Assembly: GCA_964405285.1 (NCBI GenBank)
Contig: CAYONK010000001.1
Location: forward strand, 1-42,412
DNA from: an uncultured Ardenticatenaceae bacterium
Lineage (GTDB): Bacteria > Chloroflexota > Anaerolineae > Promineifilales > Promineifilaceae
DNA length: 42,412 nucleotides
Direction of reading: 5' to 3'
Position numbers and translations under genes: made by a program. The notes beneath the pieces are model-generated. The model saw only the letters and a list, made by a program, of their open reading frames with translations. It had not been told where the DNA came from and ran no database searches. Below, piece by piece: positions 7,416-36,492 of this stretch (the stretch's first letter is position 1; each line of letters starts with the position of its first letter).

Positions 7416-7433
7416 ACCACCAAAGGATTACTT

Positions 7434-17149: not shown

Positions 17150-18262
17150 TTACAGTTTCACACTTACTCGCAGTTCGTCAACTTTCCTCTCAAGCTGCTG
17201 GAAATAATCGGTTTCGACAATGCTGGCCACTTCGCTGGCAGTTTTACTTTTATCAATTTTAATGTGAAGCTGACGGATTTGTCGCTTCATATCCTCCTGA
17301 CGTAGGCGTGTTTCCTGGGCCATTCTTCCAAAAATGCGACAGAGTTGACTGATTTCATCGTCGCCCGGGGTTGTCTTCAGGTCTTGAATATGTTCAATAG
17401 AAAGCTCATCTGCCTCCATCAGTTGGGCTGCGTCGCTGAGATTGATAATGACTCCAGAAAGGCGTTGCGCGATCATACTGGCATTGACAATGACAAAGAG
17501 CATCGTCAGGATAATCGTAAACGACAGCTTGAACAAGATAAGCCCCTGGTCGCTATTTCCGCCAACCATGTCAGGTTGTACCAAGAAAAGACCCAGCAAA
17601 ATAATGGGCAAACCGGCGGCGCTGAGAAGCAAGAATAACAGCCGGCGCATGAACCTGGAGCGGAACGCTCTAAATGCGTTCATATCAAAATGCTGAAAAT
17701 TGTAGAGCAAGATGGGCAAGAGAAAGACGACGTTGTAAATGTTGCTCCAGACGGCTGGAACAAAGTATTGGGTAAAGACAAAATGCACGTCTAAAACACC
17801 CAAAGCCACCGTCAAGGCGGAGGCCGTCCCCATCCCTAACACGATGGCGGTCATTGCCACAAGGATGGCGTGGAAATAATCGCGGAGAGTATTAAACTCA
17901 GGAATAAAGCGTCTGGCAAAACCTGGGACCATGCCCATGAGTCCGTTGCCGATCTGCCAGGCTAAAAACGTGCCCATAGCAAAGTCAACAAAAGCGTTCC
18001 CCGTCAGGGGGGATACCGGAAAAGAGATGACGCCGGAGAGAAGGTCTCCCATGATGTTGCCAACCATCCCGGTGAAAAAGCCAACCGCCGGACCAAAAAC
18101 AAACCCAAAAAAGATAGGGACAACAACGCCAGGGCGAATATTGACGTCACCAGCTGTGGCCAACGGAAAAATCGTTGTTAGCCAGTTCAACAGCGCATAC
18201 AGGGTCGCGCCGACAAGCGGTATCAACAGGTTCTTGTTGTTTTGAAAATAATGAGTTGTCAT
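17150..18262 (-). CDS. Polytopic membrane protein with HAMP-like domain and C-terminal coiled coil, last gene of the exporter operon
   Basis: About 6 TM helices, with RPGVVVPIFFGFVFGPAVGFFTGMVGNIMGDLL reminiscent of ECF S-components. The HAMP signature is PGDDEISQLCRIFGRMAQE. It starts 15 nt downstream of the ABC gene stop. Confidence 0.6.
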   Translation of the reverse strand: MTTHYFQNNKNLLIPLVGATLYALLNWLTTIFPLATAGDVNIRPGVVVPIFFGFVFGPAVGFFTGMVGNIMGDLLSGVISFPVSPLTGNAFVDFAMGTFLAWQIGNGLMGMVPGFARRFIPEFNTLRDYFHAILVAMTAIVLGMGTASALTVALGVLDVHFVFTQYFVPAVWSNIYNVVFLLPILLYNFQHFDMNAFRAFRSRFMRRLLFLLLSAAGLPIILLGLFLVQPDMVGGNSDQGLILFKLSFTIILTMLFVIVNASMIAQRLSGVIINLSDAAQLMEADELSIEHIQDLKTTPGDDEISQLCRIFGRMAQETRLRQEDMKRQIRQLHIKIDKSKTASEVASIVETDYFQQLERKVDELRVSVKL

Positions 18263-18277
18263 CTCTCTTACTCCGAT

Positions 18278-21253
18278 TTATGCCATTTGCCGTTTTGCCA
18301 GGTCGGCAAATAACCCTTCCACGTTAATTAGTTCGTCGTAGGTTCCTTGTTGGACAACACGGCCGTTTTGCAACACAAAAATCTTATCCGCCCCCTTGAT
18401 AGTGCTGAGCCGATGGGCGATGACCACCCGCGTCGCTTGCAGATCTTCCAGGCTGCGGCTGACAACAGCCTGGGTGTGGTTGTCCAGGGCGCTGGTCGCC
18501 TCATCAAAGAACAGGATGCGCGGCCGGTTGACAATGGCGCGGGCGATGAGCAGGCGCTGCCGTTGCCCGCCAGACAACGTGCCGCCGCCGTTGCTGATGA
18601 TGGTGTGCAGCCCCATCGGCATTTTCTGAATATCTTCGGCCAACCCGGCCATGACGGCCGCACGCCAGGCATCTTCCACGGTCAAGGGTAAGGAGCCGAC
18701 AATGTTGGTGAAGAGATCGCCGGCCATCAATTTGCCATTTTGCAAGACGACGCCCATTTGCCGCCGCACTTCGCGGACATCCAGGCTGTCCAGATCGCGG
18801 CCGTCGTAATAGATGCTGCCCGACAAGGGTTGCTCGAAGCCCAGCAGCAGCCGGAAGAGGGTGGATTTGCCCGAACCGGAAGCGCCGACCAGAGCTACAA
18901 ATTCGCCCGGTTTGATCGCCAACGAAACATCCTTGAGGATCATCGGGCCATCCTGGCTGTAACGGAAAGAGACGTGGGACACTTCAATGCTGCCGACCAG
19001 TTCGCCAGGATGTTCTTTGAGAGCGTCCACTTCTGGCATGGCTTGCAGCACCGGGCGGGCGCGTTCATACATGGGGATGATGTTGAGGATGGTCAAGAAG
19101 GCGCCGCTTAGGGTGAGAACGGCCGTCATAAATTGAATAAACGCCGTGTTGAATGCCAGGAATTGACCGATAGTGAATACTTCGCGCCCGGATAAAACAA
19201 CGACGGCAAAGATCGCCATGGCCGTGATGACTTGATAGCCGGCGTTAAACACTTGCAGATTATTAGATATATCACGTGCCTGGTAGCTGGCCTGCCGGGC
19301 GTGGCTAAACTCGGCCGCCCAGGTGGCAAAGGCGCGCCCTTCGGCGGCGGCGGCGCGGAATTTGGCGATCCCTTCAATCGCCTGCAAAAGAATACCCGAC
19401 AACTTACCTTGCAGGTGGACCAGTTGGCGGTAGTATCCCATCTGGCGATACCCGGCAAAAACCATCACCGCGACGGAAAGCGCCACCAACCCGGTCGCCG
19501 TCCAGGCCAGGCCGCTGTGGTAGTAAAAGAGCAAGAAGAAGCTGAACACCGAGAAAATACCGGCCAGCATGGCGCTCATCACCGTACCAGAGAGAATTTG
19601 TTGGATGCGGCGAATGCCTAAGACACGGTTACCCAAATCGCCTGAAGTGTAATCGCGGAAAAAGGAGACAGGCAGGCTGAGTACGCGCTGCCAGATAGCC
19701 GCTTCTAAATCAGCGCCCATGCGTTCTTGCAGCCGGAGTAGAGCCAGGTTTTGCACGACCTGAAACAGGGCCATTGCCAGGACAACGATGATCAATGAGA
19801 AGCCGAGTTGGAGGAGCGGCAAACGGCCGTTCTGCGGGATGATCTGGTCGAAAATGATAGCGGTTGTAATGGGGATGAGCATCCCCAAGATGCCGATGGC
19901 GATACCCGCAAATAAAATGAGGCGCAGGTCCATTGTGTCGCCTGCCAGACCAAATTTGATCAGCTCCCAGGCGCCAACTGGCTTGTTGGGTAGGGAGCGG
20001 TAAAACATGTAGGCAAATGGCTTCATGGTTTCGGCGACTTCGGCAGTCAACGCTTGTTGCTGCCGCGTGGCCGGATCGTGGAGTTGGTAGCCTCGTTTGT
20101 AGGGCATGAGGACGATGGGCTGCCCTGTTTCCTCCCAGAATCCCAGCAGTGGGCCGTTGTCTTGTTGCCACCATTCCCCCTTCAAAACCACCTGGCGCGT
20201 CTGCACGCGCGAAGCGCGAACGATATCCGCCAGGGAGAGGGCCTTATTTTGCTGCGCTTTTTTCGGAGGGGCAACGATGTCCATGCCCAGGCGCTGCCCA
20301 ATCATCTGGCAGGCTTGTAACAGGGGGTTGTCTTCGGGGGAAACGGCCGTTAACGGCGCGGCCGGCGACACAAAAGGGACAGCCAGGCGGGTCAGCGCCT
20401 CATTGATAATGGCTTGATCAGAAGCCTGTTTGGCATACAGGCGACCTAACTGCTGCCGTCGCGTTTGCTCCAGCCATTGGGCGATGTTCTGCAACATGTG
20501 ACGGTGAAAATCCGCCAGGTCCGGCCAGGGAACCGTTTGCGCCAGGAAGGTGTGGGTATCAATGAGATCGATCTGGCTATTTTCGGCTGTTTGAATCCAG
20601 GCGCGTTCCGAAATAGGCCAGCGCACTTTGCCATTGAGCAGCGGCAATTGATTCACGCCAATAAACCGGGAATGCCCATAATCGTGCCGCACCCACAACA
20701 CACCACGCCGCGCACAGACGTTGCTGGCTTCTTCAATGTAAATCGCCGGACCAGCCTCCAGACGACGACAATCTTTAGGTGGGAGGCTGTCCAAAAGGCA
20801 GGCCGAAAGTTGCCGTACCCAGTTATCGAGCAGCGCAGTTACCGGCTGCCGAAAATCATGATCTTGAGACAGGCGATACAGCCGATCAGTCGAGAGGCGT
20901 AGCAGCCGTGCCTGTTTGCCCCCCACCAACAGCAGCCCGACCTGACACTGTTCCGCACGCAAATCCATGCCAAAGACAGCCTGCCCTGCCTCCACCCGGA
21001 ACAGATGCGTTCTACTCCCGGCGACTTCGCCATTCTCCAATGAAACGGCAAATACGTCAGCCCATCCTGTATAGACAACCCAGCAATGCGCAAGGTCGTC
21101 TAAAAGGATTGGTTTGTTGCTACCGCTCTCGACCATTTGCGCTTCTTTATAACGTAAATGCAGCAGGAACAACTCTTCCACCGGCATCTCTTCGGCTGGT
21201 TCTACTATTGGGTCGTCTGGTTGACCGTGCGCTGGTAATTGTCGTGTTTTCAT
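18278..21253 (-). CDS. RiPP/bacteriocin export ABC transporter permease-ATPase with N-terminal cyclic-nucleotide-binding-like domain (NHLP/NHLM ABC2 type)
   Basis: 991 aa. Walker A GASGSGKST, signature LSGGQRQR and Walker B ILFFDEATSALD. Six-TM ABC membrane domain. About 400 aa of N-terminal extension and no C39 domain. ATGA overlap with the upstream ABC gene. Confidence 0.85.
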   Translation of the reverse strand: MKTRQLPAHGQPDDPIVEPAEEMPVEELFLLHLRYKEAQMVESGSNKPILLDDLAHCWVVYTGWADVFAVSLENGEVAGSRTHLFRVEAGQAVFGMDLRAEQCQVGLLLVGGKQARLLRLSTDRLYRLSQDHDFRQPVTALLDNWVRQLSACLLDSLPPKDCRRLEAGPAIYIEEASNVCARRGVLWVRHDYGHSRFIGVNQLPLLNGKVRWPISERAWIQTAENSQIDLIDTHTFLAQTVPWPDLADFHRHMLQNIAQWLEQTRRQQLGRLYAKQASDQAIINEALTRLAVPFVSPAAPLTAVSPEDNPLLQACQMIGQRLGMDIVAPPKKAQQNKALSLADIVRASRVQTRQVVLKGEWWQQDNGPLLGFWEETGQPIVLMPYKRGYQLHDPATRQQQALTAEVAETMKPFAYMFYRSLPNKPVGAWELIKFGLAGDTMDLRLILFAGIAIGILGMLIPITTAIIFDQIIPQNGRLPLLQLGFSLIIVVLAMALFQVVQNLALLRLQERMGADLEAAIWQRVLSLPVSFFRDYTSGDLGNRVLGIRRIQQILSGTVMSAMLAGIFSVFSFFLLFYYHSGLAWTATGLVALSVAVMVFAGYRQMGYYRQLVHLQGKLSGILLQAIEGIAKFRAAAAEGRAFATWAAEFSHARQASYQARDISNNLQVFNAGYQVITAMAIFAVVVLSGREVFTIGQFLAFNTAFIQFMTAVLTLSGAFLTILNIIPMYERARPVLQAMPEVDALKEHPGELVGSIEVSHVSFRYSQDGPMILKDVSLAIKPGEFVALVGASGSGKSTLFRLLLGFEQPLSGSIYYDGRDLDSLDVREVRRQMGVVLQNGKLMAGDLFTNIVGSLPLTVEDAWRAAVMAGLAEDIQKMPMGLHTIISNGGGTLSGGQRQRLLIARAIVNRPRILFFDEATSALDNHTQAVVSRSLEDLQATRVVIAHRLSTIKGADKIFVLQNGRVVQQGTYDELINVEGLFADLAKRQMA

Positions 21254-23523
21254 ACGTACAACTTCTCCAATATCGAGTCAAGCAGTCGCTCTGATTCAGG
21301 CGTTTCGGCTTTAATGAGGCGGGTATATTCCCCACCACGACGCCACAGTTCTTCATGTGTGCCACGTTCGACCACCTGGCCGTTGTTCAAGACGATGATC
21401 TCGTCACAGTCACGGATGGTACTCAGCCGATGGGCGACAATCAGGCAGGTGCAGCCGCGACGGCGCAAGTTGTCATCAATCAGTTTCTCGGTGATGGGAT
21501 CGAGAGCGCTGGTGGCTTCGTCGAGAATCAAGATAGATGGGTCGCTGATCAGCGACCGCGCGATTTCCAGGCGCTGCCGCTGCCCACCGCTGAAGTTACG
21601 TCCCTCTTCCTCGACCATGTGATCGTACCCGGCGGCCTGGCTGGTGATCTCATCGTGAATATGGGCATCTTTAGCGGCGCGGATGATCGTCTCTTCCGGA
21701 ATTTGCCGATCCCACATGGTGAGATTGTCGCGGATGCTCCCTTCAAAGAGGAAAATGTCCTGATCGACAATGCGCAACGAATGGCTGACGACCACACGCG
21801 GAAATTCTTCGCGCTCACGGCCGTCAAAGAGAATTTGTCCATCCCAGGGACGGTAAAGACCGGCGACCAGGCGGGCAATGGTAGATTTGCCGCTGCCACT
21901 ACCACCAACCAGGGCCACGCGCATCCCCGGTTGTAAAGAGAGGTTGAAATTCTGGATCAGAGGGGCAGCCAGGCGGCTGTAGCCAAAGGTCAGGCTACGG
22001 ATTTCGAGCTGCCCCATCAGTTTTTGTAGGGAGTGGTCGGCGTCTTCCAGGAAGGTGTCGTCCGCCAAATCCACTCGCGGGTCCGGCTCATAATTGGTCA
22101 CGTCGTTCAGGCGGCGGACAATGCCATCTACTTCTTGCAACTGTGTACCCAATTGCACGACCTGGTTCACCGGCGCCAAAAAACTGGACATCAACGTTTG
22201 AAAAGCGACCAGGATGCCAACGCTCATTTGCCCATTGAGGATCAACGACGCGCCAACGATGAGAATGACGACGGTGGTGATCTGGCTGAGCAAGAAGGGG
22301 ACGACGTTGATGATCTGGGTGGTGGCCCCTAGCTCCTGGTTGGCGTTGAAAACTTTGGCCTGATACCCAGACCAGGTGGCGAAAGAATCAGCCTCGCGCC
22401 CGGTTGATTTGATCGTCTCGATTTGGGACAGGCTGTTGAAGGTGGTGGAGAGCAATTTGCCATGTTCTTGAACCAGACGTTGGTTAACATCTTTGCGGCG
22501 ACGCGCCACCATGCGCAGGGCCAGGAAGTTGAGGGCGGCCATCCCGATGCCGATGAGGGTTAGGGTGACGCTGTAATGAAACATGAGGATGGCATAGAAG
22601 AAGATCAGCACGCCGTTAAGCAAGGTGGTTGCCAGTTCGCCGGAGAGGAGTTCGGCGACGCGGTCGTTTTGTTCGATACGGGCGCTGATGTCGCCTGCGC
22701 CACGCTGGCTGAAGAATTCAATGGGCAGACGCAGGATATGCCAGGTGAGGCGGCTGGCATTGGACAGGGCCAGCCGCGTTTCTAGGCGCAGTAGATAGCG
22801 CTGTTGCATCCAGGTGAGGATGGAGCGCAACACGGCCGTTAACGCCATTCCGCCCAACAAAGGAACCATCCACTCTGTGCGACCGCCCACCAGGTAATAA
22901 TCCACAAAGACCTGGGAAAAAGCGGGGATCAGTAGGCCGGGAATGACCAGGACCAGGCTGACCAACACAACGAAGGCCAGAGCCATTTCCACCCCTGCCA
23001 GCCGGGGCAGCAAGGCGGCTGCCAGGCTTGGCTTTTTGCCCTGCGGTTGAAAACCCTCTCCTTTGCTAAAGGTCAAGACCACGCCAGTGAACGCTTCATC
23101 TAGCTCCTGGGCCGACACTGTGCGCGGGCCGGTTGCCGGATCGTTCAGGTACACCGTATCCTTGTAAAAGCCTTCGAGGACGACAAAATGATTGAAGTTC
23201 CAGTGGATGATGGCGGGCAAGGGTACGTCGCGCAGACCGGCCGGCTCTTGCCGGTATCCTTTGGCTGTCAGGCCATAGGTGCGCGCTGCTTTGACCATGT
23301 TGCTGGCTTTGCTGCCATCTCGGTTCACGCCGCAGGCCGCGCGCAGCTCTTCCAGGGGGATGTGGCTGCCATGATAGGCGAGGATGCTGCCCAAAGCGGC
23401 CGCGCCACATTCGACCATTTCCATCTGCAATACCGTGGGTGTTTTGGCGCGATGTCGCCCAAGCAGGTATTTTTTCAGTTCCGGCCACGCCTTTTTTGCT
23501 CTCTCGATCCGGTTTTCGTTCAT
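21250..23523 (-). CDS. Bacteriocin/lanthipeptide export ABC transporter with N-terminal C39 double-glycine peptidase domain (LanT/NHLM ABC1 type)
   Basis: C39 catalytic Cys context LQMEMVECGAAALGSILAYHG and His context IIHWNFNHFVVLEG. Walker A GGSGSGKST, signature FSGGQRQR and Walker B LILDEATSALD. Confidence 0.9.
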   Translation of the reverse strand: MNENRIERAKKAWPELKKYLLGRHRAKTPTVLQMEMVECGAAALGSILAYHGSHIPLEELRAACGVNRDGSKASNMVKAARTYGLTAKGYRQEPAGLRDVPLPAIIHWNFNHFVVLEGFYKDTVYLNDPATGPRTVSAQELDEAFTGVVLTFSKGEGFQPQGKKPSLAAALLPRLAGVEMALAFVVLVSLVLVIPGLLIPAFSQVFVDYYLVGGRTEWMVPLLGGMALTAVLRSILTWMQQRYLLRLETRLALSNASRLTWHILRLPIEFFSQRGAGDISARIEQNDRVAELLSGELATTLLNGVLIFFYAILMFHYSVTLTLIGIGMAALNFLALRMVARRRKDVNQRLVQEHGKLLSTTFNSLSQIETIKSTGREADSFATWSGYQAKVFNANQELGATTQIINVVPFLLSQITTVVILIVGASLILNGQMSVGILVAFQTLMSSFLAPVNQVVQLGTQLQEVDGIVRRLNDVTNYEPDPRVDLADDTFLEDADHSLQKLMGQLEIRSLTFGYSRLAAPLIQNFNLSLQPGMRVALVGGSGSGKSTIARLVAGLYRPWDGQILFDGREREEFPRVVVSHSLRIVDQDIFLFEGSIRDNLTMWDRQIPEETIIRAAKDAHIHDEITSQAAGYDHMVEEEGRNFSGGQRQRLEIARSLISDPSILILDEATSALDPITEKLIDDNLRRRGCTCLIVAHRLSTIRDCDEIIVLNNGQVVERGTHEELWRRGGEYTRLIKAETPESERLLDSILEKLYV

Positions 23524-23580
23524 GGAATCACTTGCCTTTGGGCTTGTTTGCTTGCCTGCGGCCCTGCTATTAAGCCGAGG

Positions 23581-24369
23581 CTAACGAAGAGGCAGCACCA
23601 ATTCAATGGGGCGCTGTGCCCCGATCTGGATGGTGGCGGAAGCCAATGTACCGATGAGGCCGGGCGATAGTTGGGTAATGGCCGTATCCGTCTCGATCAG
23701 CACGCGCACCTCAATCGGGTTATCCGGTAGCGCCAGATTGTGGGCGAGTGCCTCGCTGCCCAACAAGTGGGTTATTTGCTGTCTGGAGACGGGGTATTGG
23801 CTAACGGCCGTTACCACACCAGACATAGGAGCAACGCTAGTCGTGGCAACAGGCTCAATTGCCACTGGCATACCGACCTGGAGTTGGCGAGCGGCGACCG
23901 GCGATAGGTAGAGGACCGCTTCCAGGCTCTCGCCTGTCCCGGTGGATTGTAGACTGGCCAGGGAGTCGCCGCTGCGCAGGAGTTGGCCTACGTCTGTGTT
24001 TAGCTGCAAGATGCGGCCGTTGTGCAAACTGCGTACCGGCACGGGCGCGCTCTTGCCCAGAGGCAGAATCTCAGCCACGATCTGGTTTGTGGCGACGCTC
24101 TCTCCGGCGGCGACGTGCCAGGCATAAAGCTGTCCTTGTTCAGCCACGATGACGTTTTTGATGCCTCCTGTGGGGATCAAAGCGGCCGTCGCCGTTTGTT
24201 GCAAGGGAATTTGACCGAAGATGGCCCAATAAACGGCCGTTGCCACCAGCAGCGCCAAGGCCAGAAAAGCGAGCCAGCTACGGGGGCTGGTCACTTGCAT
24301 GAGTAGATCAAGCTGCTCAGGGGATGAAAGACGGTCAAGGGAAACTTTACGAAAAATCGAAGAAGTCAT
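23581..24369 (-). CDS. HlyD-family membrane-fusion/secretion protein (short NHLP-system type)
   Basis: 262 aa. N-terminal LSSPEQLD motif, a TM segment (WLAFLALALLVATAVYWAIF), then a beta-barrel-like region. Adjacent to the two ABC genes. Confidence 0.75.
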   Translation of the reverse strand: MTSSIFRKVSLDRLSSPEQLDLLMQVTSPRSWLAFLALALLVATAVYWAIFGQIPLQQTATAALIPTGGIKNVIVAEQGQLYAWHVAAGESVATNQIVAEILPLGKSAPVPVRSLHNGRILQLNTDVGQLLRSGDSLASLQSTGTGESLEAVLYLSPVAARQLQVGMPVAIEPVATTSVAPMSGVVTAVSQYPVSRQQITHLLGSEALAHNLALPDNPIEVRVLIETDTAITQLSPGLIGTLASATIQIGAQRPIELVLPLR

Positions 24370-24379
24370 ACGGTCCTCC

Positions 24380-25546
24380 TCACATCATAACCGGCGTTAG
24401 CGGCGTCTCGTTGGTCGTTGCCTCTATGCGCTCGGTTGCCGACAAAATGACTATTCTCCAGGCACGAACTTTCTCTGCCAGACGCTTTTCCCCGTCGCTG
24501 GCGGCCAGATCGGACAGGCTCGTGCCTGCCAGCGCGCAGAGTGCGGCTCCCCGGCCGACCTCGTCCCGATCCTGCCCGGCTAATGCGCGGTCGAATCGTT
24601 CCAGGTTGTAAACGGCCGTGACAACGATGTCCATGATCTGGAAAAATGCCGGGTCCTGTCGCAGCGATGGGTCCAGGTAATTTTCCAGCCGCCCCCCTGT
24701 CCGGTAGGATGGGTATGTTTCTAAACCCATAAAACGCAGCGCCCAATCGGCGCGGTAATGCCCGATGGCGGCGACGATGCCCGCGTAGTCAGCCAGTAAT
24801 TCGTCGTGCAGGTGTCGGCGAATAACGCCAAAGACTCGTTTGGTGAAGTAGTGGGCACACTCATGCTCAAGCCGTATCGTTAAGGAGAGTGAGTGCCACT
24901 CGTCTGCTGCCAACCCAAGCGAAGCGGCGGTCACGTTGCTGTAAGCCCCCTGGCTAAGGATGATGAAGCGGTCCTGATAAAGGTGCTTTTGGGGGATGAG
25001 TTCCTGAAAGGCGTGCGGCCAATCTTGGGATGTGCGGCGGGGATCGGCCGCCAACCATTGGCGGCGATAGGCGCGAACGCGATCCCAATTGTTGTATCCG
25101 GCGATCATGCAAGCGCCCATGGAATCGGGGATGGGGGATGGTTCGTTGTGTTTGGCCAGAGCTTGCACCAGAGCGCAAAAATCGGCGCGGGTGGCCGGGA
25201 TCAGTACCGGCACGGCGCCGGCGATGCTTTGGTGAATGTGTAACTGGAGGGCGTCCGGTTGTTGGAGCAGTAGGCCGCTCAGACCGGCCCATCCAGAAGT
25301 ATCTACCCCTTGTTTGGTCGCGGCGCGGTAAACGGCCGTTTGGCTGATACCCTGGTGAATGGGAAACTGCAACTGCACCAATCGCGCCTGCAGCGCTTCC
25401 CAGGCGCTACGGTGTACCGCTTCCGCCTGGTACTCCTGCCAGGTCGCTACATGATGTTCTGGCGGCAAGGGCAAACGACCATATCGCCAATTAAGGGAAG
25501 CGGGTGTATGTTGGGAAATTGGTGCGTCAACATATGCTGCGATCAT
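24380..25546 (-). CDS. Hypothetical protein with HExxH(+E) gluzincin-like motif; putative metallopeptidase
   Basis: LEHECAHYFTKRVFGVIRRHLHDELLADY carries HECAH, with a Glu 17 residues after the second His. The gene sits between the GT and the HlyD gene in the same orientation, 10 nt from the HlyD start. Confidence 0.5.
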   Translation of the reverse strand: MIAAYVDAPISQHTPASLNWRYGRLPLPPEHHVATWQEYQAEAVHRSAWEALQARLVQLQFPIHQGISQTAVYRAATKQGVDTSGWAGLSGLLLQQPDALQLHIHQSIAGAVPVLIPATRADFCALVQALAKHNEPSPIPDSMGACMIAGYNNWDRVRAYRRQWLAADPRRTSQDWPHAFQELIPQKHLYQDRFIILSQGAYSNVTAASLGLAADEWHSLSLTIRLEHECAHYFTKRVFGVIRRHLHDELLADYAGIVAAIGHYRADWALRFMGLETYPSYRTGGRLENYLDPSLRQDPAFFQIMDIVVTAVYNLERFDRALAGQDRDEVGRGAALCALAGTSLSDLAASDGEKRLAEKVRAWRIVILSATERIEATTNETPLTPVMM

Positions 25547-25639
25547 GATGCCTTCCTGTGAAAGTCTTACTTCGAGTCTAGCTTCAATCCAGGACCAACA
25601 CCATATGGGGGTAGTTACATTTCGCCTATGACTTTGACT

Positions 25640-26896
25640 CTACGTTACCCACGATAACTGTAATGGTTCTGTTTGCCGTACTACCGGGGCCTGCTTCAGC
25701 GCCAACGTCTCCAACAGGGAGGCTGCGCGTTCCGCGCCCTTATAACGCGCAAGCGCCTGTTGTACACAACGCGCGTTTTGTTTGAGGTTACCGTCATAAA
25801 GCATTGCCCTGACGGCCTCTTTAAGATTTATTGGGGTCACTTCATTGGCAGGTATACAGTGGGCAACCCCTGCTTGCCCACACACTTTAGCCACATCGTA
25901 GCTTTCGCTGGCCGTAACAATGATCACCATGGGCAACCCATGCGATAAGGTGTTGAGCATAATACTTGTCGTCCCATTCGTGATCACGCCAGCAGCGTAA
26001 GGAAGAATAGCCTGGTGTGGGATATGTTGGCTCACAAAGAAGTTGTCCGGCAAATTGCTCTGCGTTATTTCAGGATCATTGGTTGACACAGCCACCGCAA
26101 CAGGCTCCTGTCTGAACGCCTCTAAGAAAACGGGCCAAAAATCAGGTATGCCATTCAATGTCTCCCCATCCTGTTTGAAAGGCTTTGACCAGCGGTTGTT
26201 GTGTTGTACATAGATGATAGGCTTCTGAGATGCGGTTACGCTATTTAGCCAGTCCAACAAAGGTCTCTCGGGGGAAATGGGCGATTTCCACAAACAGCCA
26301 CCAACCAGATGCACTTTGTCGGGAAGTGTTTCGATATCTTTTTGTAGTTCTGGCACACTACGTAGGAGAAACAGGTCTCCCAATAAGGCTGACTGGGGAT
26401 AAGCGCTTTGCTCTAATGGTGGCCTCTCACCTGTTGAGTACAGGCAGGCCAAACGGTATGTCTTCCAAAGGCCGTCATACCGTTTGGCCTCCCAGCTTTC
26501 AGAGTGCAAGCCCTCAATGCCGTTAATGGTTGGCCAGGGGTACGTCGCTAACCCCAAAACCGCGACCGGGATGTGGTGCTTTTGGGCGATAATAAGAGGC
26601 CCTATCGCCAACGCCGAAGTAACTATGACATCTGGCTCAAATGTGTTCACGGCAGCCGTGACGTAATCTGCTTGCTTGCGAATACCTTGTAGATCCATCC
26701 ATTGCGATACAGCAAAGATGTCATGGGCCTGGTCATTCGTGGGGATATATGAATACCCCGATTGCTCCAGTGTCGCTGCAAAAGAAGGGCCGGTGGTAAA
26801 GGCAACTTCATGGCCTCTGCTTTGTATTTCAGAGGCAACGGCCATGGCTGGGTAAACATAGCCTTCGCTTGCCAGAACGCAAAATAGATAACGCAT
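25640..26896 (-). CDS. GT-B fold glycosyltransferase, GT1/MGT (macrolide-glycosyltransferase-like) family
   Basis: MRYLFCVLASEGYVYPAMAVASEIQSRGHEVAFTT is a typical GT1/GT28 N-terminal acceptor domain. The C-terminal donor region reads GGC..., ITNGTTSIMLNTLSHGLPMVII. The gene starts 5 nt after the lanM stop. Confidence 0.8.
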   Translation of the reverse strand: MRYLFCVLASEGYVYPAMAVASEIQSRGHEVAFTTGPSFAATLEQSGYSYIPTNDQAHDIFAVSQWMDLQGIRKQADYVTAAVNTFEPDVIVTSALAIGPLIIAQKHHIPVAVLGLATYPWPTINGIEGLHSESWEAKRYDGLWKTYRLACLYSTGERPPLEQSAYPQSALLGDLFLLRSVPELQKDIETLPDKVHLVGGCLWKSPISPERPLLDWLNSVTASQKPIIYVQHNNRWSKPFKQDGETLNGIPDFWPVFLEAFRQEPVAVAVSTNDPEITQSNLPDNFFVSQHIPHQAILPYAAGVITNGTTSIMLNTLSHGLPMVIIVTASESYDVAKVCGQAGVAHCIPANEVTPINLKEAVRAMLYDGNLKQNARCVQQALARYKGAERAASLLETLALKQAPVVRQTEPLQLSWVT

Positions 26897-26901
26897 TTGC
26901 T

Positions 26902-29900
26902 TTACTCCTGGGGCAATTCAAACAGCAACAGAGAAGGTATATCTGCCGGATAGGCAACTCTTAAGAGACTGTACCCAATGCCGGCAAGGCCATTCATGAG
27001 ACCCATAGTCTCGATACCGAGCGGCGCGCCGCAAATAAGTCCTTCCTGGCAAATGGATGCTATGAGATCGTTCGCTAACTGCTGCACGTGGGCTTTTAGG
27101 TTAGCATCTGACAGTTGTTGTGCAGCCTGGAGCAAGAACTCCAGGTTGCCAGACGCGCCATGACAGAGCGAGTGGTTGTCGCCCACTCCTGTGGTGAGTG
27201 CGCTTTGCACGGCCGTTTTGATCTCCTCGCGCATTTGGGGGTCATCCATATAGCGGGTGGATGCTAAACGCGCCATTCCCACGCCGGTTATCCCATCACA
27301 CCAGGTGGCAGGCAACTTAGATCCCTCGGCAGCTAAAACAGACCGCTCATAAGCGATAGCAGAAGCGGCTGCCTGGTAAAAACGAGGTTCCCCGCTGACG
27401 TGGTGCAGTTTCAATAATGCCCAGGCAATCCCGCTCCCCCCAGTGGCAAAGCCTACGTTGTGAGAATTGTTTTGTAGATTCTTCTCTTGCCAGGATATGC
27501 CTGATGCTGAATGCTGTGCCTTGTCGAGCAGCCAATCGCCGCATTGTATTGCCGCATCTAGCACCGGTTTTGAAGGACGATGGGCATACAGGCTGGTAAG
27601 ACAAACAATCGTACCGGCCGCGCCAGAGAGGATGTCAAAATGGGTATCGCGTTGGATGAGTGAGGTAATGTGCTGCACATAATGTTCGGTGCGTGCGAGA
27701 AGGTCTTCGTCTTGCCAGAGAGTACCCAGATGCGTCAGGGTATAAATAATGCCACCCCATCCATCAAATCCGCCAATCAATTTAAGTGCGCGCTTCATGG
27801 CTAATGTTGGGTTTTCCACCCAGCCAAGCACAGAGTTGATTGTGTGCCGGGCCAGGGTGGTGTAACGGCCGTTGTCCGTCACGCGCCCCAGGTGAGCTAA
27901 AAACAAAGCGCTGCCCGGCAAACCACTGTAGAGGCTTGTGTTCCCCGCTTCCAGGAACCACTTATGTTCTTGGGCATATAGATCAACCCAGGTGGCACGA
28001 TCTCCTTCCCGGATGGCTGACGCCGCAATTCTCTCCCCTAACACGTTCGCCAACGCAAGCGGATCGGGGCGTGTACCCGGTGAGGCAAGCAGGACGGGTT
28101 TTCTCCGCACTTCGCTGGCAGACGACGACCGGACAAATGAAGCGCGCACAAACCAAACCTGCCGCTCGTAATCGGCCGCGCTCAAGTCTCGTAGCCGGTT
28201 TTTAGCCAACTCCAGCCCAGACTCTTCCAGGTAATTGGCGATGCAGTCGCCGCGGCTGCTCCATACATGCTCTGAACCGGGTTGGGTCGTGAAAAAAGGA
28301 ACATCCAATTGCCACAAATCGTTGCGTTCAAAAGGAATTAACTGTTTTAAGTGAGGCTGATCAGGCACTTCAAGCCACAATTTGTCACATGTTTTCTCGT
28401 AATTCAAGCCATCGCGCAGCTCTTGTGGTTGTAAGCATTGCCGCAATAACAGGGCATAGGTCATGCTGTTTCTGGGCACAATGCGCGTTTGATCGGTTGC
28501 AAATTGGTCTAAGGGGCTGCCGGGATGTAATAACTCGTCACGATGATCGTGCAATAACCAATACATAGCGTGAAATCCGGCAAGAACCTCGTCTATATAC
28601 GCCAGGCTGTTTATCGGTTGCCCTTGCAGGTGGGGTTGGTGATTTGTCACCCCTCCCGAAATTGGTTTGTGGGCGTACTGCATTTTGTCCGTTCCTACAT
28701 TTTCCAATACCAACGCTGTTCGTGTACTCTCGCTGGCAGCATCTCCCATGCCGCCTATGTCCAAACCGAGGCTGATTAACCTGATGTTGGGCAACAACAA
28801 CGGGTTGACTACCGAGTCGTTGATTTGTTTGTAGGCCGTGGCGATTGCGCCGTGCGCAGCCATATATGTAGGATGAAATAATGTCTCCAGATCGATCAGC
28901 ATGGGGTGTTCACCGGAAGCGATCACATTTTCATAATGAAAATCAACCCCTTTCAAAATGGTTAACAGCCCCAGATACCCTCCTTGCCTGGTGAAGAAAC
29001 GCCTGACTTCTGCTTCTGTGGCGCAAGCCTGCGCAGACACAAATTCGACCCAACCATGGCTGCTGCGATTGAGCAGCGGTAATGTTGCCAGGGGTGGGGT
29101 GAAACCTCGCGCATTGATCCAGCAAAGCAGAGATTGGAAATGCGCGTCAACGTCGAGTGGTTTGGGCTTATAGACCAACTTTTCGCCGGAGCGAAAGGTG
29201 ACGATCATGACTCTGGCGCTGCCAGCGTGGCGGTCTCCGGCATTGGCGTTGATCTGGGCTACACAATCAGAGGGATCTATCGCTGCGAAAGTATGGCAAA
29301 TGTCTTCCCAATCGCTGCATAAGCGCTGCAGGAATAGGCGTGTTGCTTGAACCCAGTTCTGCAAAAAAGTAATCAGCAAACGAGCCAGGACCGGATATTC
29401 TTGTAAGAGGGAAAGCGCCAAATCTGGTTGATGCAGACGGCCGATGAAACTTTGGAAACGAGCTTCTGGTGTTTCACCTTGTAAAAGGCCCAGCACACGT
29501 GCCGCTTGAAGTTCCAAGACCATGACCGGCGTCAATATCGCTGTTAATTCGTCTAACAAGGGGCTGAACAAGATATCTTCGATGGTGGTTTTATCAATCG
29601 GGCTGGGGAAACGGCCGTTTTGCCCAACAAGCTCGCTGACAGTTACATGAACGGCCGTTTGCGATTGCTGGATCAATGGCTTGATCAATGCGAGAAAAGT
29701 CGTATCTATCTTTGCCCGCAAAACCTGCGATAGCCCAGCATCGGCGTCAAGGTTTGTCGAAAACGCCGCCAATAACTCAGCAACCCACGCTTGCTTCGCC
29801 ACACGCCCTTGCAAAGTCACTGCCGGTTCAGCTAATAAAGAGAGCAGCCCCTCTTCTGTCAGATGGCTCTCCGCCAATCTCTGCGCAAAATACCCATCCT

Positions 29901-30096
29901 GGTCAAAAGGTCGCTGACGCTTCCATTGACCCAGGCGCTTTAGATGACGTTCAGAAGGCGCTTGTTCCACAGGTAAATTGTTATGGTCCTGATAGAGAGA
30001 ACTTGTCCGTTCAAACAGCGTTGCTGCCTGTAACCATAAGGGCGTGTCAAATTTTGCATTCAGCATGGCTAAACTCAACGGAGACAAATTTTTCAA
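26902..30096 (-). CDS. lanM: Class II lanthipeptide synthetase LanM (dehydratase + LanC-like cyclase); start uncertain (TTG 30096 or ATG 30066)
   Basis: Dehydratase motifs GDRHAGSARVMIVTFRSGEKLVYKPKPL and HYENVIASGEHPMLIDLETLF. Cyclase motifs GGSGIAWALL, WCDGITG and CHGASGNLEFLL, which carry the Zn ligands. Confidence 0.95.
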   Translation of the reverse strand: MKNLSPLSLAMLNAKFDTPLWLQAATLFERTSSLYQDHNNLPVEQAPSERHLKRLGQWKRQRPFDQDGYFAQRLAESHLTEEGLLSLLAEPAVTLQGRVAKQAWVAELLAAFSTNLDADAGLSQVLRAKIDTTFLALIKPLIQQSQTAVHVTVSELVGQNGRFPSPIDKTTIEDILFSPLLDELTAILTPVMVLELQAARVLGLLQGETPEARFQSFIGRLHQPDLALSLLQEYPVLARLLITFLQNWVQATRLFLQRLCSDWEDICHTFAAIDPSDCVAQINANAGDRHAGSARVMIVTFRSGEKLVYKPKPLDVDAHFQSLLCWINARGFTPPLATLPLLNRSSHGWVEFVSAQACATEAEVRRFFTRQGGYLGLLTILKGVDFHYENVIASGEHPMLIDLETLFHPTYMAAHGAIATAYKQINDSVVNPLLLPNIRLISLGLDIGGMGDAASESTRTALVLENVGTDKMQYAHKPISGGVTNHQPHLQGQPINSLAYIDEVLAGFHAMYWLLHDHRDELLHPGSPLDQFATDQTRIVPRNSMTYALLLRQCLQPQELRDGLNYEKTCDKLWLEVPDQPHLKQLIPFERNDLWQLDVPFFTTQPGSEHVWSSRGDCIANYLEESGLELAKNRLRDLSAADYERQVWFVRASFVRSSSASEVRRKPVLLASPGTRPDPLALANVLGERIAASAIREGDRATWVDLYAQEHKWFLEAGNTSLYSGLPGSALFLAHLGRVTDNGRYTTLARHTINSVLGWVENPTLAMKRALKLIGGFDGWGGIIYTLTHLGTLWQDEDLLARTEHYVQHITSLIQRDTHFDILSGAAGTIVCLTSLYAHRPSKPVLDAAIQCGDWLLDKAQHSASGISWQEKNLQNNSHNVGFATGGSGIAWALLKLHHVSGEPRFYQAAASAIAYERSVLAAEGSKLPATWCDGITGVGMARLASTRYMDDPQMREEIKTAVQSALTTGVGDNHSLCHGASGNLEFLLQAAQQLSDANLKAHVQQLANDLIASICQEGLICGAPLGIETMGLMNGLAGIGYSLLRVAYPADIPSLLLFELPQE

Positions 30097-30183
30097 CCTT
30101 GGGAAACGTGTCCGAGGGGATTAAGAGGGTTTCATTGTTTGCGCGGGACATCTTTTTTATATCCCAGATGCAACGCAACTATA

Positions 30184-30226
30184 CAGCCTCTCAAGACCTG
30201 ACAGGTTTTTAACGAAGCATTTGGCA
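30184..30226 (-). promoter_or_regulatory. Operator/promoter element copy A upstream of lanM (shared with 36530-36572)
   Basis: Plus strand reads CAGcCTCTCAAGACCTGACAGGTTTTTAACGAaGCaTTTGGCA, a 40/43 match to copy B. The core is the palindrome AAGACCTG-A-CAGGTTTT. On the minus strand a TATAGT -10-like hexamer follows directly (30178-30183). Confidence 0.55.
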
Positions 30227-30336
30227 GATTCGCAATCTGGTAGAAATCTGTCAGGCCAGTTATGATGCAATTGCTATTAGCGTACTGGCACGGTCATAAG
30301 ACCGTGCCAAACGAGAGAACTCTGATCGCGATGCCC

Positions 30337-30401
30337 AAATAAAAAGGGTTGCTCCCCGGTCAAATTGTAATAACGCATTCAATTTGACCGGGGAGCAACC
30401 C
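30337..30401 (-). terminator. Strong intrinsic terminator between lanA and lanM
   Basis: Minus strand reads GGGTTGCTCCCCGGTCAAATT-14 nt loop-AATTTGACCGGGGAGCAACCC-TTTTTATTT. This is a perfect 21-bp stem that begins 10 nt after the lanA stop. Confidence 0.85.
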
Positions 30402-30410
30402 TGACACAAT

Positions 30411-30620
30411 TTATCGAGTGTTAATCTTGGTGTTACCACAAGTGTTGATACAGGTCCAGGCTCCACCGGCAACTTCTTCCAACTCTTCATCCGACAATTC
30501 GGCCATGTTGTCGGGGGAAGGCGGCAAAGCAGCGAGTTGATCGGGGGATAAACTGTTGCGGAATTCCTCATCTTTCCAGGCCTGCACAATTTCTTGGGGG
30601 GTTGGGGTATATTCTGACAT
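30411..30620 (-). CDS. lanA: Lanthipeptide precursor LanA, mersacidin/lichenicidin-type leader with double-glycine site; predicted core AWTCINTCGNTKINTR
   Basis: AAGGAGA SD lies 11 nt upstream. The leader is IVQAWKDEEFRNSL...AELSDEELEEVAGG, with hydrophobic residues at -4, -7 and -12. The 16-aa core has 4 Thr and 2 Cys. Adjacent to lanM. Confidence 0.9.
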   Translation of the reverse strand: MSEYTPTPQEIVQAWKDEEFRNSLSPDQLAALPPSPDNMAELSDEELEEVAGGAWTCINTCGNTKINTR

Positions 30621-30782
30621 GACTCTTTTAGTCTCCTTATTTATGTTTTTGAATCTGAATATAGTTTCTTAACTGCTTCCTGGAACACATTTTGCAGAGA
30701 GTGTGCACATCTCCGTCTACAATTTGTATCCCCTCTATCACAATCTGCCGCGGACAGATTGAAGAACAACGCAAGAACAATC

Positions 30783-31058
30783 TTAATCAAGCGGTACAAT
30801 TGGGCGATTATGCAAAAGATAGTGCCACCACGTATCCTCAGATGGCTCGGTATCTTTTCCCCATTCAGCGTCAAGGCCAAAAACCGTGAACTTCCGATCC
30901 TCTTCCTTTTTGTACTCTTGTATCCAGCGTTGTGCATCCACAACAGACTCGAAGGCACATCCGCCACGATACTCTTCTGTACGACCTACTTTAAAGAGGG
31001 CGCCCCATACTTGTAGCTGCGCTTTGTATACTTTTTCTGGGCCGACAGTGTAGATCAC
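30783..31058 (-). CDS. Small hypothetical protein (91 aa, GTG start) directly upstream of lanA
   Basis: AAGGAA SD lies 7 nt before the GTG. Acidic, Trp-rich and cytoplasmic-looking. I recognised no family. Confidence 0.5.
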   Translation of the reverse strand: MIYTVGPEKVYKAQLQVWGALFKVGRTEEYRGGCAFESVVDAQRWIQEYKKEEDRKFTVFGLDAEWGKDTEPSEDTWWHYLLHNRPIVPLD

Positions 31059-31273
31059 GTCTTAATTCCTTATTGTTGGGTCGTGTGTTTAACTATGCTC
31101 GATCATACTGGAAGCCTGACTTGGGGACATGATGTAACAGCTATATTTTCCAGCGTGACATTGAGCCTATATAAATGTGCCATCAGTTGGAGAAGGAACA
31201 AGACTGTGGCGACATTGCTACATCACAAACGAAAGGAATAATTGCGGTAGCCTGGCGAAACTTGCGCCGGATT

Positions 31274-31301
31274 TTGACCGTGTAACCGTGTAACATAGAT
31301 T
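31274..31301 (+). promoter_or_regulatory. Candidate sigma70-type promoter of the MDR reductase gene, containing tandem CCGTGTAA CCGTGTAA
   Basis: -35 TTGACC (31274-79), 16-nt spacer, -10 TAGATT (31296-301). The spacer holds a perfect tandem 8-mer (31278-31293). The ATG lies 42 nt downstream with an AAGGATGG SD. Confidence 0.35.
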
Positions 31302-31342
31302 GCCAACTTGTACTACAGGGTAACTGGCAAAAGGATGGTGAA

Positions 31343-32449
31343 ATGAGAAATCTGGCAGTGATCAATCATGCAGAAGAATCGCTATGTGATAGCGCAAAGG
31401 AAACGGTTGAGATAGACGGCGTTCCCGTTACCTTTGGCATGATATCCACGTCTGTACCTGAGTTTAATGGAAACGCTCCTGAAAACCGGCAGCGGGTCTT
31501 GGTGAGAAAGAAGGCCTTTTCCTGTAACTACCGTGATAAAGCCTTTATCTTTGCCGCCAGCAAGCAGACCCGACCAGGGGTCTATCAACCTATTGGCTCA
31601 GAGTTTGCTGGAGAGGTGGTTGATATTGGGCGTGATGTTGTTGGATTAGCTATTGGGGATAGAGTGATTGGGAACAACCATTACTATGACAACAGTTCTC
31701 CTTTTGCCGAAGGTGTGCCCACAAATAAGGCATCCAAAGAGTACGAGGTGTTGCACTACGCTAAGCTCATCAAGATCCCGCCGCAAATGTCGGATGAGGT
31801 CGGCGCTGCGTTTAGCATCGGGGCGCAAACCGTTTATGGCATGATCCGCAAGCTCAACTTGAAGCCTGGCGAAAAAGTCCTTGTGACCTCGGCAAAATCG
31901 AATACATCTTTGTTTGCCATCAATGCCCTCCGCCAATACGATGTTGCCGTCTACGCCACCTCGACAAATGATGATTATGCTGACAGATTACAAGAGATGG
32001 GCGTACGTCAGCTATTTGTGGTGTCGCCCGAGCCTGAGGCAGGCAGCATTATGGCTGCGGCCGGAATGTTTGACTGCGTCCTTGACCCCTTTTTTGATCT
32101 CCATCTAAGCTGGGTAGTGCATTTAATGACCTATAATGCACGCTACGTTTCCTGCGGCCGTGCTGGTCAATACCATCGCATCATTGATAAACAACCGCCT
32201 GTTATAGAGAAAACGAATGCCTTGACGGATGTTCTATCCAACGTTGTGGTGAAGAATATGAAACTGATCGGAAATTGTGTGGGTGTTACGGAAGACCTGG
32301 CTCAAGCTATCGCGGATTACACGACCGGGCGCTTTGATGTTGTGATTGACTCAGTTTACTCTGGTAAACAGCTAGGTGAGTTTATCAACAGGAGTTACAA
32401 TGCCAGAGAACGGTTTGGCAAAGTGATCTATAAATATGATGGTGATTAA
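31343..32449 (+). CDS. Medium-chain dehydrogenase/reductase (quinone-oxidoreductase/enoyl-reductase-like, apparently zinc-free); LanJ-type dehydroamino-acid reductase candidate
   Basis: GSEFAGEVVDIGRDVVGLAIGDRVIG is the GroES-like MDR core, with Ser in place of the catalytic-Zn His. LKPGEKVLVTSAKSNTS occupies the position of the Gly-rich dinucleotide motif. The gene is divergent from the lanA operon. Confidence 0.7.
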   Translation: MRNLAVINHAEESLCDSAKETVEIDGVPVTFGMISTSVPEFNGNAPENRQRVLVRKKAFSCNYRDKAFIFAASKQTRPGVYQPIGSEFAGEVVDIGRDVVGLAIGDRVIGNNHYYDNSSPFAEGVPTNKASKEYEVLHYAKLIKIPPQMSDEVGAAFSIGAQTVYGMIRKLNLKPGEKVLVTSAKSNTSLFAINALRQYDVAVYATSTNDDYADRLQEMGVRQLFVVSPEPEAGSIMAAAGMFDCVLDPFFDLHLSWVVHLMTYNARYVSCGRAGQYHRIIDKQPPVIEKTNALTDVLSNVVVKNMKLIGNCVGVTEDLAQAIADYTTGRFDVVIDSVYSGKQLGEFINRSYNARERFGKVIYKYDGD

Positions 32450-32510
32450 CCAAGCGGTAACACAGGCGAAGAACCTGTGTTACCCTGGCTACATATTAGT
32501 TATCGCCTGA

Positions 32511-33611: not shown

Positions 33612-33680
33612 CCTGAACCCCCTTATGTTAACTATGATCGGTTTCTAACTGTGTAGCTTTTGGTTTTTTGTTGTATAGCA

Positions 33681-34451: not shown

Positions 34452-34465
34452 CGGTTATCTCCCTC

Positions 34466-36148: not shown

Positions 36149-36219
36149 CTTATTTCTGTCTAAAGCTTATCTGGTTGCAATACAGCAATCAGAACTTGCT
36201 CACTAGACCCCTGCATCCA

Positions 36220-36492
36220 TTAGTTAAAAAGCGTATCCAACAAGCTGGACCCACGTTCCCGCTTGGGCTTATAAGATGGTTGGAGCAGAACCTGAAACTT
36301 GCTTTCGCCATCTTGGTTAAGACGGCAGTCTCGAACCATTCGGTTGACAAGGCCCTCCAACTCATCCAACGGAATTCTGGTCAAACCAGCGATCTCTTGC
36401 AAAGTCAGACGTGGTTGACGCACCAGGCAACGAATGACATCTTGTTCTTGACTTGATACAGTTAACAAATCCAGCGGAGACATCAAAGTCAT
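36220..36492 (-). CDS. Small winged-helix (MarR-like) DNA-binding protein, 90 aa
   Basis: ATG at 36492 lies 8 nt after an AAGGAGAA SD. MTLMSPLDLLTVSSQEQDVIRCLVRQPRLTLQEIAGL is about 45-50% identical to the N-terminus of 34466..36148. The tracked start at 36582 would read through the promoter element. Confidence 0.7.
   Translation of the reverse strand: MTLMSPLDLLTVSSQEQDVIRCLVRQPRLTLQEIAGLTRIPLDELEGLVNRMVRDCRLNQDGESKFQVLLQPSYKPKRERGSSLLDTLFN

Follow-up and report, generated by a model that had tools for sequence, protein, structure and literature searches.

The locus and its biosynthetic genes

The window analysed here is a stretch of 42,412 nucleotides from contig CAYONK010000001.1 (assembly GCA_964405285.1) of an uncultured Ardenticatenaceae bacterium of the Chloroflexota, and family assignments of its predicted proteins support the presence of a lanthipeptide cluster of class II (LanM) that combines a mersacidin-type precursor with a three-component exporter of the NHLP type. 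The combination of LanM, a LanJA reductase and an NHLP-type exporter is of an already known kind; the new element is a conserved partner of the GT1 glycosyltransferase (GT) type. The best explanation overall, to which we assign a probability of roughly 0.6, is a class II lanthipeptide cluster whose GT1-type protein glycosylates the LanM product. An initial annotation of this DNA had placed, on the minus strand, an open reading frame of 91 codons, lanA, a terminator, lanM, the GT gene and genes for an HExxH protein, a HlyD protein, two ATP-binding cassette (ABC) proteins and a membrane protein; the same genes, coordinates and minus-strand sequence were recovered, as was the divergent orientation of a medium-chain dehydrogenase/reductase (MDR) gene. 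LanM, LanA and the C39 transporter, which it had considered unambiguous, each score above a curated family cut-off. The biosynthetic genes and the element between lanA and lanM are the following:

30411-30620, minus strand: lanA, encoding a 69-residue precursor; TIGR03898 (mersacidin/lichenicidin) at 64.2 bits against a cut-off of 23.5, residues 10-53
30345-30402, minus strand: stem of a hairpin with a U-tract, 3' of lanA; folding free energy (dG) -45.8 kcal/mol, z = -9.47
26902-30096, minus strand: lanM, encoding the class II synthetase; TIGR03897 at 869 bits against a cut-off of 304, model positions 2-932 of 932
25640-26896, minus strand: homologue of GT1-superfamily (GT-B) glycosyltransferases, 6 bp downstream of lanM on the same strand
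31343-32449, plus strand: LanJA-type NAD(P)H-dependent dehydroamino-acid reductase (the MDR gene); ADH_N at 36.5 bits against 23.5

The lanA gene is preceded by a ribosome-binding site (AAGGAGA) and encodes a leader that ends in ...EELEEVAGG, the two final glycines being residues 52-53. The 16-residue core that follows, AWTCINTCGNTKINTR, contains four Thr, no Ser and two Cys, which agrees with the maximum of four dehydrations expected beforehand; its computed monoisotopic mass is 1794.85 Da unmodified and 1722.81 Da after four dehydrations. The cores of the lanA orthologues in the related loci L001 and L002 are GWTCIGSCGNTQIR and AWTCVGTCGNTKINAQ. The terminator proposed between lanA and lanM was borne out by folding: the hairpin is long and perfect, is followed by UUUUUAUUU, and is more stable than each of 200 shuffled sequences (0/200 as stable). 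A simple terminator scan overlooked it because the stem exceeds the length that the scan counts, and folding recovered it. The hairpin is likely an attenuating terminator that sets the ratio of lanA to lanM transcript.

LanM itself comprises a DUF4135 dehydratase domain (PF13575, 383 bits) and a LANC_like cyclase domain (PF05147, 208 bits), and the cyclase domain shows its zinc-ligand motifs, WCDG and LCHG, when the translation is read by eye. On the N-terminal side of Cys4, the core of the window offers only one candidate ring partner, the adjacent Thr3. Cys4 would either take part in a ring formed in the reverse direction, as occurs in cinnamycin, or its thiol would meet another fate.

Linkage of the glycosyltransferase to LanM

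Homologues of the GT were followed to contigs, genome loci and metagenome loci (numbered with the prefix L), and 20 informative contexts were obtained once near-identical loci had been collapsed and contigs too short to judge had been excluded. LanM lies adjacent to the GT or one gene away from it in 11 of these 20 contexts: the window with L001 and L002; L003/L004; L005/L006; L007; L009; L021; L026; L093; and the metagenome contigs L100, L101 and L103, on which LanM adjoins the GT. A further six contexts contain other RiPP (peptide that is synthesized by ribosomes and modified post-translationally) or exporter genes, being either radical-SAM RiPP-like (L008, L092, L094) or of the NHLP-exporter kind (L095, L096/L097, L106). 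The initial annotation had made the role of the GT in the cluster depend on its conservation with lanM, and such conservation is found, at an identity to the window GT that falls to only 33-42% in the LanM-linked contexts and in rearranged gene orders.

Among the LanM-linked contexts, the exporter operon is found inverted, replaced or missing. Specifically, L003-L006 carry it inverted, and L009, which has three precursors, as well as L093 use a different single C39-ABC exporter. The other tailoring genes likewise vary, with a JmjC gene between lanM and the GT gene in L007, where JmjC oxygenases make up the other tailoring genes, and an acetyltransferase and a sulfotransferase in L003; the arrangement in L026 is that of the window. 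Chance adjacency cannot explain this pattern. The same comparison bears on the idea that the GT has nothing to do with the peptide and came to lie beside lanM by chance, serving instead the glycosylation of the envelope or of small molecules, or self-protection in the manner of macrolide-inactivating GTs. Such a role would fit its best named relatives, which are small-molecule GTs (YjiC, CalG, OleD/OleI), and the three of 20 contexts (L098, L099, L108) in which the RiPP genes tested for are all missing. It is nevertheless very improbable in view of the gap of 6 bp to lanM on the same strand and of an adjacency that persists at such low identity, through inversions and the swap of every other component, in several records labelled with different lineages.

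In an Anaerolineae genome (L021, 6766-9316), two tandem GT genes follow lanM, and two near-identical precursors with the cores GAPTIGSCNMISCFDL and LAPTIGSCNMISCF are encoded; the tandem arrangement suggests two sugars or two sites.

As a side observation, a polyprenyl-synthetase homologue is encoded at the far end of the window (40852-41775), and genes resembling polyprenyl synthetases or squalene-hopene cyclases adjoin the GT in the distant GT-linked RiPP clusters L092 and L093. These neighbours may be a coincidence or a hint of prenyl chemistry.

Fold, active site and candidate acceptors

The GT protein has the full-length GT-B architecture, and Pfam recognises both Rossmann halves above cut-offs (EryCIII-like_C, PF06722, 40.4 bits against 31.7; Glyco_transf_28, PF03033, 27.8 against 26.2; UDPGT, PF00201, 21.1 against 19.5). 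The nearest solved structures are YjiC, EspG2, CalG1/2/4 and OleD/OleI, with E values of 1e-19 to 1e-11 for YjiC, CalG and OleD, and the C-terminal nucleotide-sugar half aligns well with YjiC, including the conserved Glu. The GT-B fold and the partnership with LanM are supported; sugar transfer, its donor and its acceptor we infer. Within the GT clade, His29 and Asp174 are invariant, and the subclade of the window carries a 12-residue insertion (NNRWSKPF...) that co-occurs with the 91-codon open reading frame.

Several observations weigh against glycosylation of the peptide, which is deduced here from homology together with gene linkage. The His of the G-H-x-x-P motif is the catalytic base of GT1 enzymes. 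In the HMMER alignment, Tyr13 of the window GT stands where YjiC has this residue (His16), and Tyr, Phe, Leu or Ala replaces it in 22 of 22 aligned members of the clade. The diphosphate motif is degenerate, reading TNGT instead of the HHGG type, and the macrolide-GT subfamily model TIGR01426 yields 119.6 bits, far under its cut-off of 260. The GT may use an unusual acceptor or donor, or transfer no sugar at all. Alignments of the cores, furthermore, show no acceptor residue outside the ring motif that is kept in all GT-linked cores. The reductase step has difficulties of its own: its gene is missing from every cluster below approximately 80% identity, and the enzyme would need to reduce dehydrobutyrine because the core contains no Ser. 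To our knowledge, acceptance of dehydrobutyrine by such a reductase has been reported for CrnJ only.

The absence of the canonical catalytic His throughout the clade, the degenerate donor motif, the low macrolide-GT score and a cluster devoid of sugar-nucleotide genes could all be accommodated if the GT-like protein were a conserved LanM partner with lost or changed catalysis that performs no sugar transfer, acting as a non-catalytic scaffold or peptide-binding protein or transferring another group. We consider this unlikely, since both Rossmann halves score above Pfam cut-offs in a full-length GT-B protein whose C-terminal half retains the conserved Glu of YjiC, the invariant His29 and Asp174 could provide an alternative base, and the tandem GT copies of L021 are what stepwise glycosylation would predict.

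The cores of GT-linked clusters are short (14-23 residues), and the precursors mostly contain the motif [S/T]C-x3-[S/T]C (TCINTC in the window, TCIGSC in L001, SCNMISC in L021, SCWIASC in L007, SCVAASC in L009 and SCGWSSC in L093), with L003 having C-x3-[S/T]C in the form C-x3-TC (KCNGTC). In the six clusters nearest the window, a C-x-x-T follows the motif as well, as CGNT(K/Q), CTNT, CTFTK or CTGTK, and Trp2 and Asn10 of the core are kept only among the three closest relatives. Since the clade lacks the usual catalytic His and its substrates share only the residues of the [S/T]C-x3-[S/T]C motif, an unusual nucleophile may be glycosylated, for example the thiol of a Cys that is thereby kept out of ring formation, or a Thr left undehydrated.

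The available data are compatible with the following model. By family assignment, LanM would bind LanA via the mersacidin-type leader, dehydrate up to four Thr of the core and link Cys4 and Cys8 into two methyllanthionine rings. The GT1-type protein would add a sugar to the LanM-modified peptide, with a nucleoside diphosphate sugar of primary metabolism as the probable donor because the cluster holds no sugar-nucleotide genes. The LanJA reductase would convert leftover dehydrobutyrine to D-aminobutyrate, a step that appears lineage-specific because only the closest relatives carry the gene. The trio of C39-ABC, second ABC and HlyD proteins would, again by family assignment, remove the leader after GG and export the product. 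If this model is correct, a GT1-fold enzyme in co-evolution with LanM would provide a new modification for the largest and most engineerable class of lanthipeptides and, in itself, a new peptide-glycosylating catalyst. The predicted activity should be easy to test by co-expression because the substrates are small.

The LanJA-type reductase

The MDR gene belongs, by homology, to the LanJA family, which includes LtnJ of lacticin 3147 and SacJ. In a tblastn search against plasmids, the protein matched LtnJ on pMRC01 (31.6% identity, E 3e-46), which closes the lacticin 3147 operon, a position that was checked in the ltn operon. Further matches were homologues on Staphylococcus aureus plasmids (30%, E 2e-42), one gene on a Pediococcus plasmid (34.7%, E 6e-51), one from Pseudanabaena (41.7%, E 2e-88), which is divergent from a LanM gene accompanied by Nif11 precursors, and one on an Azospirillum B510 plasmid (46%). 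Most of the other listed MDR proteins reached only about 1e-9 to 1e-14, with one Actinomyces oris plasmid gene in between (5e-33). The motifs SCN[YF]RDK, AKSxTSLF (which replaces the glycine-rich loop), DPFFD and IGNC are common to the window protein and LtnJ.

Of the tailoring set that had been described as unusual for a LanM system, this leaves the GT1 gene; the MDR gene falls into the LanJA family, and the HExxH protein, treated below, is associated with the exporter. Zinc-dependent dehydrogenases, moreover, are a recognised tailoring class, and a 2020 survey counted genes for them (ADH_N) in 63 class II clusters. Among the GT-linked clusters, only the window, L001 and L002 carry the MDR gene, and none of 80 loci anchored on the exporter-associated protein DUF7005 has it. 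Its conservation with the cluster does not extend beyond relatives of approximately 80% identity; D-amino-acid formation is therefore no family trait, and the MDR gene is a routine, lineage-specific add-on.

Comparison with known systems

Glycosylated lanthipeptides had been called rare, with NAI-112 (class III) and cacaoidin (class V) as examples, and these two are the only ones named in the reviews and papers searched. A literature search aimed at a GT linked to LanM, or at glycosylation of a class II lanthipeptide, returned nothing relevant, with poor coverage of subscription journals, so that a recent report could be missed. In the papers searched, the RiPP glycosyltransferases with a stated family are GT2 or GT4 enzymes, and no GT1-type enzyme is named. 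Specifically, cacaoidin relies on Cao8 and Cao16 (GT-2) and Cao24 (GT-4), none of them GT1. NAI-112 (with AplG) and cacaoidin share the presence of a sugar with the proposed product, but they are made by other synthetase classes than LanM, and their clusters encode deoxysugar pathways, which the cluster in the window does not. Dedicated GTs also modify Cys, Ser or Thr in glycocins (SunS, ThuS, PalS and GccA-type systems) and in the lasso peptide modified by IgtG, among RiPPs with double-glycine leaders and C39 exporters; these enzymes are, however, of the GT2/GT-A type with a DXD motif, whereas the window GT is of the GT1/GT-B type, and glycocins carry disulfides instead of lanthionines.

The remaining components resemble other systems. 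Cyanobacterial and related clusters that join LanM with NHLP/Nif11 precursors (Nostoc, Azospirillum B510) have, like the window, LanM with the same three-gene exporter and the GG-proximal leader motif, and the pPg_03 locus of Pseudanabaena galeata, a further example, also encodes a divergent LanJA-type reductase (42%), a MinD/ParA protein, a cNMP-binding protein (cNMP, cyclic nucleoside monophosphate) and a homologue of the 366-residue protein described below. In contrast to these cyanobacterial clusters, the window has a mersacidin-type instead of an NHLP/Nif11 leader, a single precursor instead of a paralogous set, and a GT1 gene in the lanM operon, with 78 of the 80 DUF7005-anchored loci having no GT.

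Lacticin 3147 (ltnA1A2M1TM2J) and staphylococcin C55 also combine LanM with an LtnJ-type reductase, but they are two-peptide systems of Firmicutes with a single LanT exporter and Ser-derived dehydroalanine as substrate, whereas the window encodes one peptide whose core contains Thr but no Ser; the lacticin 3147 operon has no annotated GT. With the lantibiotics of the mersacidin/lichenicidin family, the window shares the TIGR03898 leader, LanM and a C39-dependent cut after GG, and it differs from them in its unrelated core, its three-component exporter and its GT. The core presumably also lacks the lipid II-binding ring motif of mersacidin.

The NHLP-type exporter

The exporter is encoded by three genes:

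23581-24369, minus strand: HlyD-type adaptor; TIGR03794 at 163.2 bits against a cut-off of 156.2, a narrow pass
21250-23523, minus strand: C39 peptidase/permease/ATPase subunit; TIGR03796 at 1092 bits against 853, Peptidase_C39 at 126 bits
18278-21253, minus strand: second ABC permease/ATPase subunit; TIGR03797 at 950.2 bits against 709.4, residues 308-990

All three proteins score above the cut-offs of NHLP-type families, as their earlier description as an NHLP-type trio implied. The HlyD adaptor has 262 residues for a model of 421 positions and matches it in two stretches. The second ABC subunit has an extra N-terminal region of approximately 300 residues, which is kept in 43 of 80 related loci. 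It had been labelled a cNMP-ABC protein; the ABC part of this label stands, and the cNMP part is weaker than claimed, with no Pfam cNMP_binding match at E <= 1 in the N-terminal 435 residues and a weak similarity of residues 55-139 to a small cNMP alignment (hhalign, 69% probability, P = 4.5e-5).

The pairing of this exporter with LanM had likewise been presented as unusual. It has already been described by Haft et al. (2010), who found the three-gene transporter beside LanM in Nostoc and Azospirillum, and what is new in the window is the mersacidin-type leader. Against the NHLP leader model TIGR03793, LanA scores 27.3 bits, below the cut-off of 50.9, in an alignment limited to model positions 57-77; the last 20 residues of the leader fit this GG-proximal motif, which is the part recognised by C39 domains. 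A mersacidin-type leader with an NHLP-type exporter is a variation and no surprise.

DUF7005 and a putative control module of the exporter

Further genes of the window accompany the exporter:

24380-25546, minus strand: DUF7005 protein with HExxH (H228, E229, H232); PF22541 at 467 bits
33681-34451, minus strand: ParA/MinD-like P-loop ATPase; Pfam ParA at 66.5 bits, AAA_31, CbiA
34466-36148, minus strand: 560-residue protein, winged-helix-like in an N-terminal segment and also containing a cNMP-binding domain; cNMP_binding at 35.9 bits against 27.5
36220-36492, minus strand: 90-residue paralogue of the N-terminus of the 560-residue protein, with syntenic genes of 90-92 codons in L001, L002, L005 and L006
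17150-18262, minus strand: 370-residue membrane protein, N-terminus similar to ECF-transporter S components; PF07155 at 29.6 bits against 26.7

DUF7005 has more than 2000 homologues, mostly of 50-55% identity, in Nostocales and other cyanobacteria. A first structural model based on an 18-sequence alignment reached a predicted local distance difference test score (pLDDT) of 53, and an alignment of 120 sequences gave an AlphaFold2 (AF2) model with a pLDDT of 92.9 and a predicted template modelling score (pTM) of 0.90. In these 120 sequences HExxH is invariant, as are D248, E249 and D253. The invariant residues would suit a zinc metallopeptidase that acts in trimming or degradation of the leader, or in a second maturation cut on the exported peptide, and so would the position of the gene, which has the tailoring genes on one side and the exporter on the other and lies directly upstream of HlyD. 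Such an activity is doubtful given the structural comparison: a Foldseek search of the PDB with the confident model found no significant fold match (best E 1.1, template modelling score at most 0.16; M60 zincin probability 0.04), a profile search of PDB sequences returned nothing, and Pfam at E <= 10 yielded PF22541 alone and no peptidase family. The C39 domain, moreover, already explains the cleavage after GG, and the linkage of DUF7005 is to ParA and to cNMP-binding regulators, independent of the cargo. No paper found in the literature search mentions DUF7005.

Neighbourhoods were counted for the best 80 of 437 genome relatives of DUF7005. ParA is present in 55 of these 80 loci, HlyD and the two ABC genes in 55-59, LanM in 18-19 and a GT in two. 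Of 75 loci with sufficient flanking sequence, 47 have the ParA gene directly upstream of DUF7005 on the same strand; downstream, a C39-ABC gene is present in 41 of 58. The cyanobacterial order is ParA, DUF7005, a 360-residue cNMP-binding protein, NHLP-type precursors, HlyD, ABC1 and ABC2. In L012, the same export and regulatory module recurs at 67-86% identity, but the LanM there is a different one (27% identity) and a GT is absent. The HExxH protein had been put forward as a putative metallopeptidase of the unusual tailoring set; it tracks the exporter instead of the cluster, and from its gene neighbourhoods we read DUF7005 as an exporter-associated protein, whatever the cargo, and not as a cluster-specific tailoring peptidase.

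Orthologues of the 560-residue protein are found in L001, L002, L005-L007 and L012. The membrane protein had been named after a HAMP domain; that it is a membrane protein was confirmed, and its HAMP part is weaker than claimed, the C-terminus being a HAMP-like module with a coiled coil (PF00672 at 18.2 bits, below the cut-off of 25). Its residues 242-366 are kept beside ParA in 36 of the 80 DUF7005 loci. In L005-L007, the sensor gene beside ParA encodes a dCache protein with a HAMP match on record, which is only faint in L005 and L006 and carries no such mark in L007.

In hundreds of genomes of cyanobacteria and Chloroflexota, DUF7005 goes together with the exporter, a ParA-like ATPase and a cNMP-binding protein. 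With the HAMP-like protein added, these proteins accompany NHLP-type exporters across both groups and are probably a conserved accessory set of these exporters with a regulatory and not a tailoring function. The four components would then represent an unstudied and widespread control layer of peptide secretion in these two groups. A joint reading is offered tentatively, at slightly less than even odds: the GT would belong to a previously unrecognised, RiPP-dedicated clade of GT1-fold enzymes and produce here the first glycosylated class II lanthipeptide, and, as a separate matter, an undescribed control module of NHLP exporters in cyanobacteria and Chloroflexota would consist of DUF7005, as a new fold with HExxH, together with a ParA-like ATPase, a cNMP-binding protein and a HAMP-like sensor.

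Two conserved proteins of the cluster

Two further conserved genes of the cluster encode proteins with no Pfam match:

30783-31058, minus strand: conserved 91-residue protein, in every case directly upstream of lanA; no Pfam family
32511-33611, minus strand: 366-residue protein; no Pfam or NCBIfam match, and nothing found with its profile in PDB sequences

The LanM-GT clusters L001-L006 and L026, whose GT has the 12-residue insertion, are the only ones with orthologues of the 91-residue protein (52-90% identity). A word-indexed search found only two near-identical matches, and an exhaustive search of 1.84 billion proteins found 187 representative clusters at E <= 1e-3. A Pfam scan of ten longer family members revealed no consistent fusion partner (one methyltransferase, one Acb2/Tad1 hairpin). 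The protein could be a GT partner or an immunity protein. The 366-residue protein, whose fold might conceivably be prenyltransferase-like, has homologues (27-37% identity) in a series of LanM clusters and clusters for other RiPPs, specifically in L007, L011, L014, L031, L033, L039, L067, L091, L093, L094, L096 and L106; in L093, the homologue lies between lanA and lanM.

Extent and origin of the cluster

The limits of 17150-32449 set by the initial annotation are too narrow, since synteny with L001 and L002 runs on past 32449 to approximately 37474. This part covers the 366-residue protein, ParA, the 560-residue cNMP-binding protein, its 90-residue paralogue and a regulator at the syntenic edge:

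36767-37474, minus strand: LuxR-type response regulator (Response_reg and GerE), in the same position in L001 and L002

Judged by its synteny, this regulator may control the cluster. It is the first of two LuxR-type response regulator genes that, together with a gene for an 807-residue multi-pass histidine kinase, flank the cluster at 36767-40820. At the other edge, synteny stops at 17150, and the gene for a BTAD/NB-ARC/TPR regulator at 13475-16513 is not common to the relatives.

The nearest relatives of the cluster are metagenome-assembled Chloroflexota. L002 ('Chloroflexi bacterium', GCA_016716065.1) contains the same cluster at a protein identity of approximately 80-90%, and the exporter genes of L015, on a contig labelled Anaerolinea sp. 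CH6, are 87-96% identical. The G+C content falls from 0.61-0.63 in the flank at 9-17 kb to 0.47-0.58 over the cluster (0.47-0.53 for 25000-42000), and this drop and the end of synteny coincide near 17 kb, which fits a mobile or recently acquired block. Further upstream, at 67-8057, lies an operon of the dimethyl sulfoxide (DMSO) reductase family that is unrelated to the cluster and encodes a molybdopterin subunit, a 4Fe-4S subunit, a DmsC anchor, a radical SAM protein, a TorD/NarJ-type chaperone, a polyferredoxin and an FmdE-like protein.

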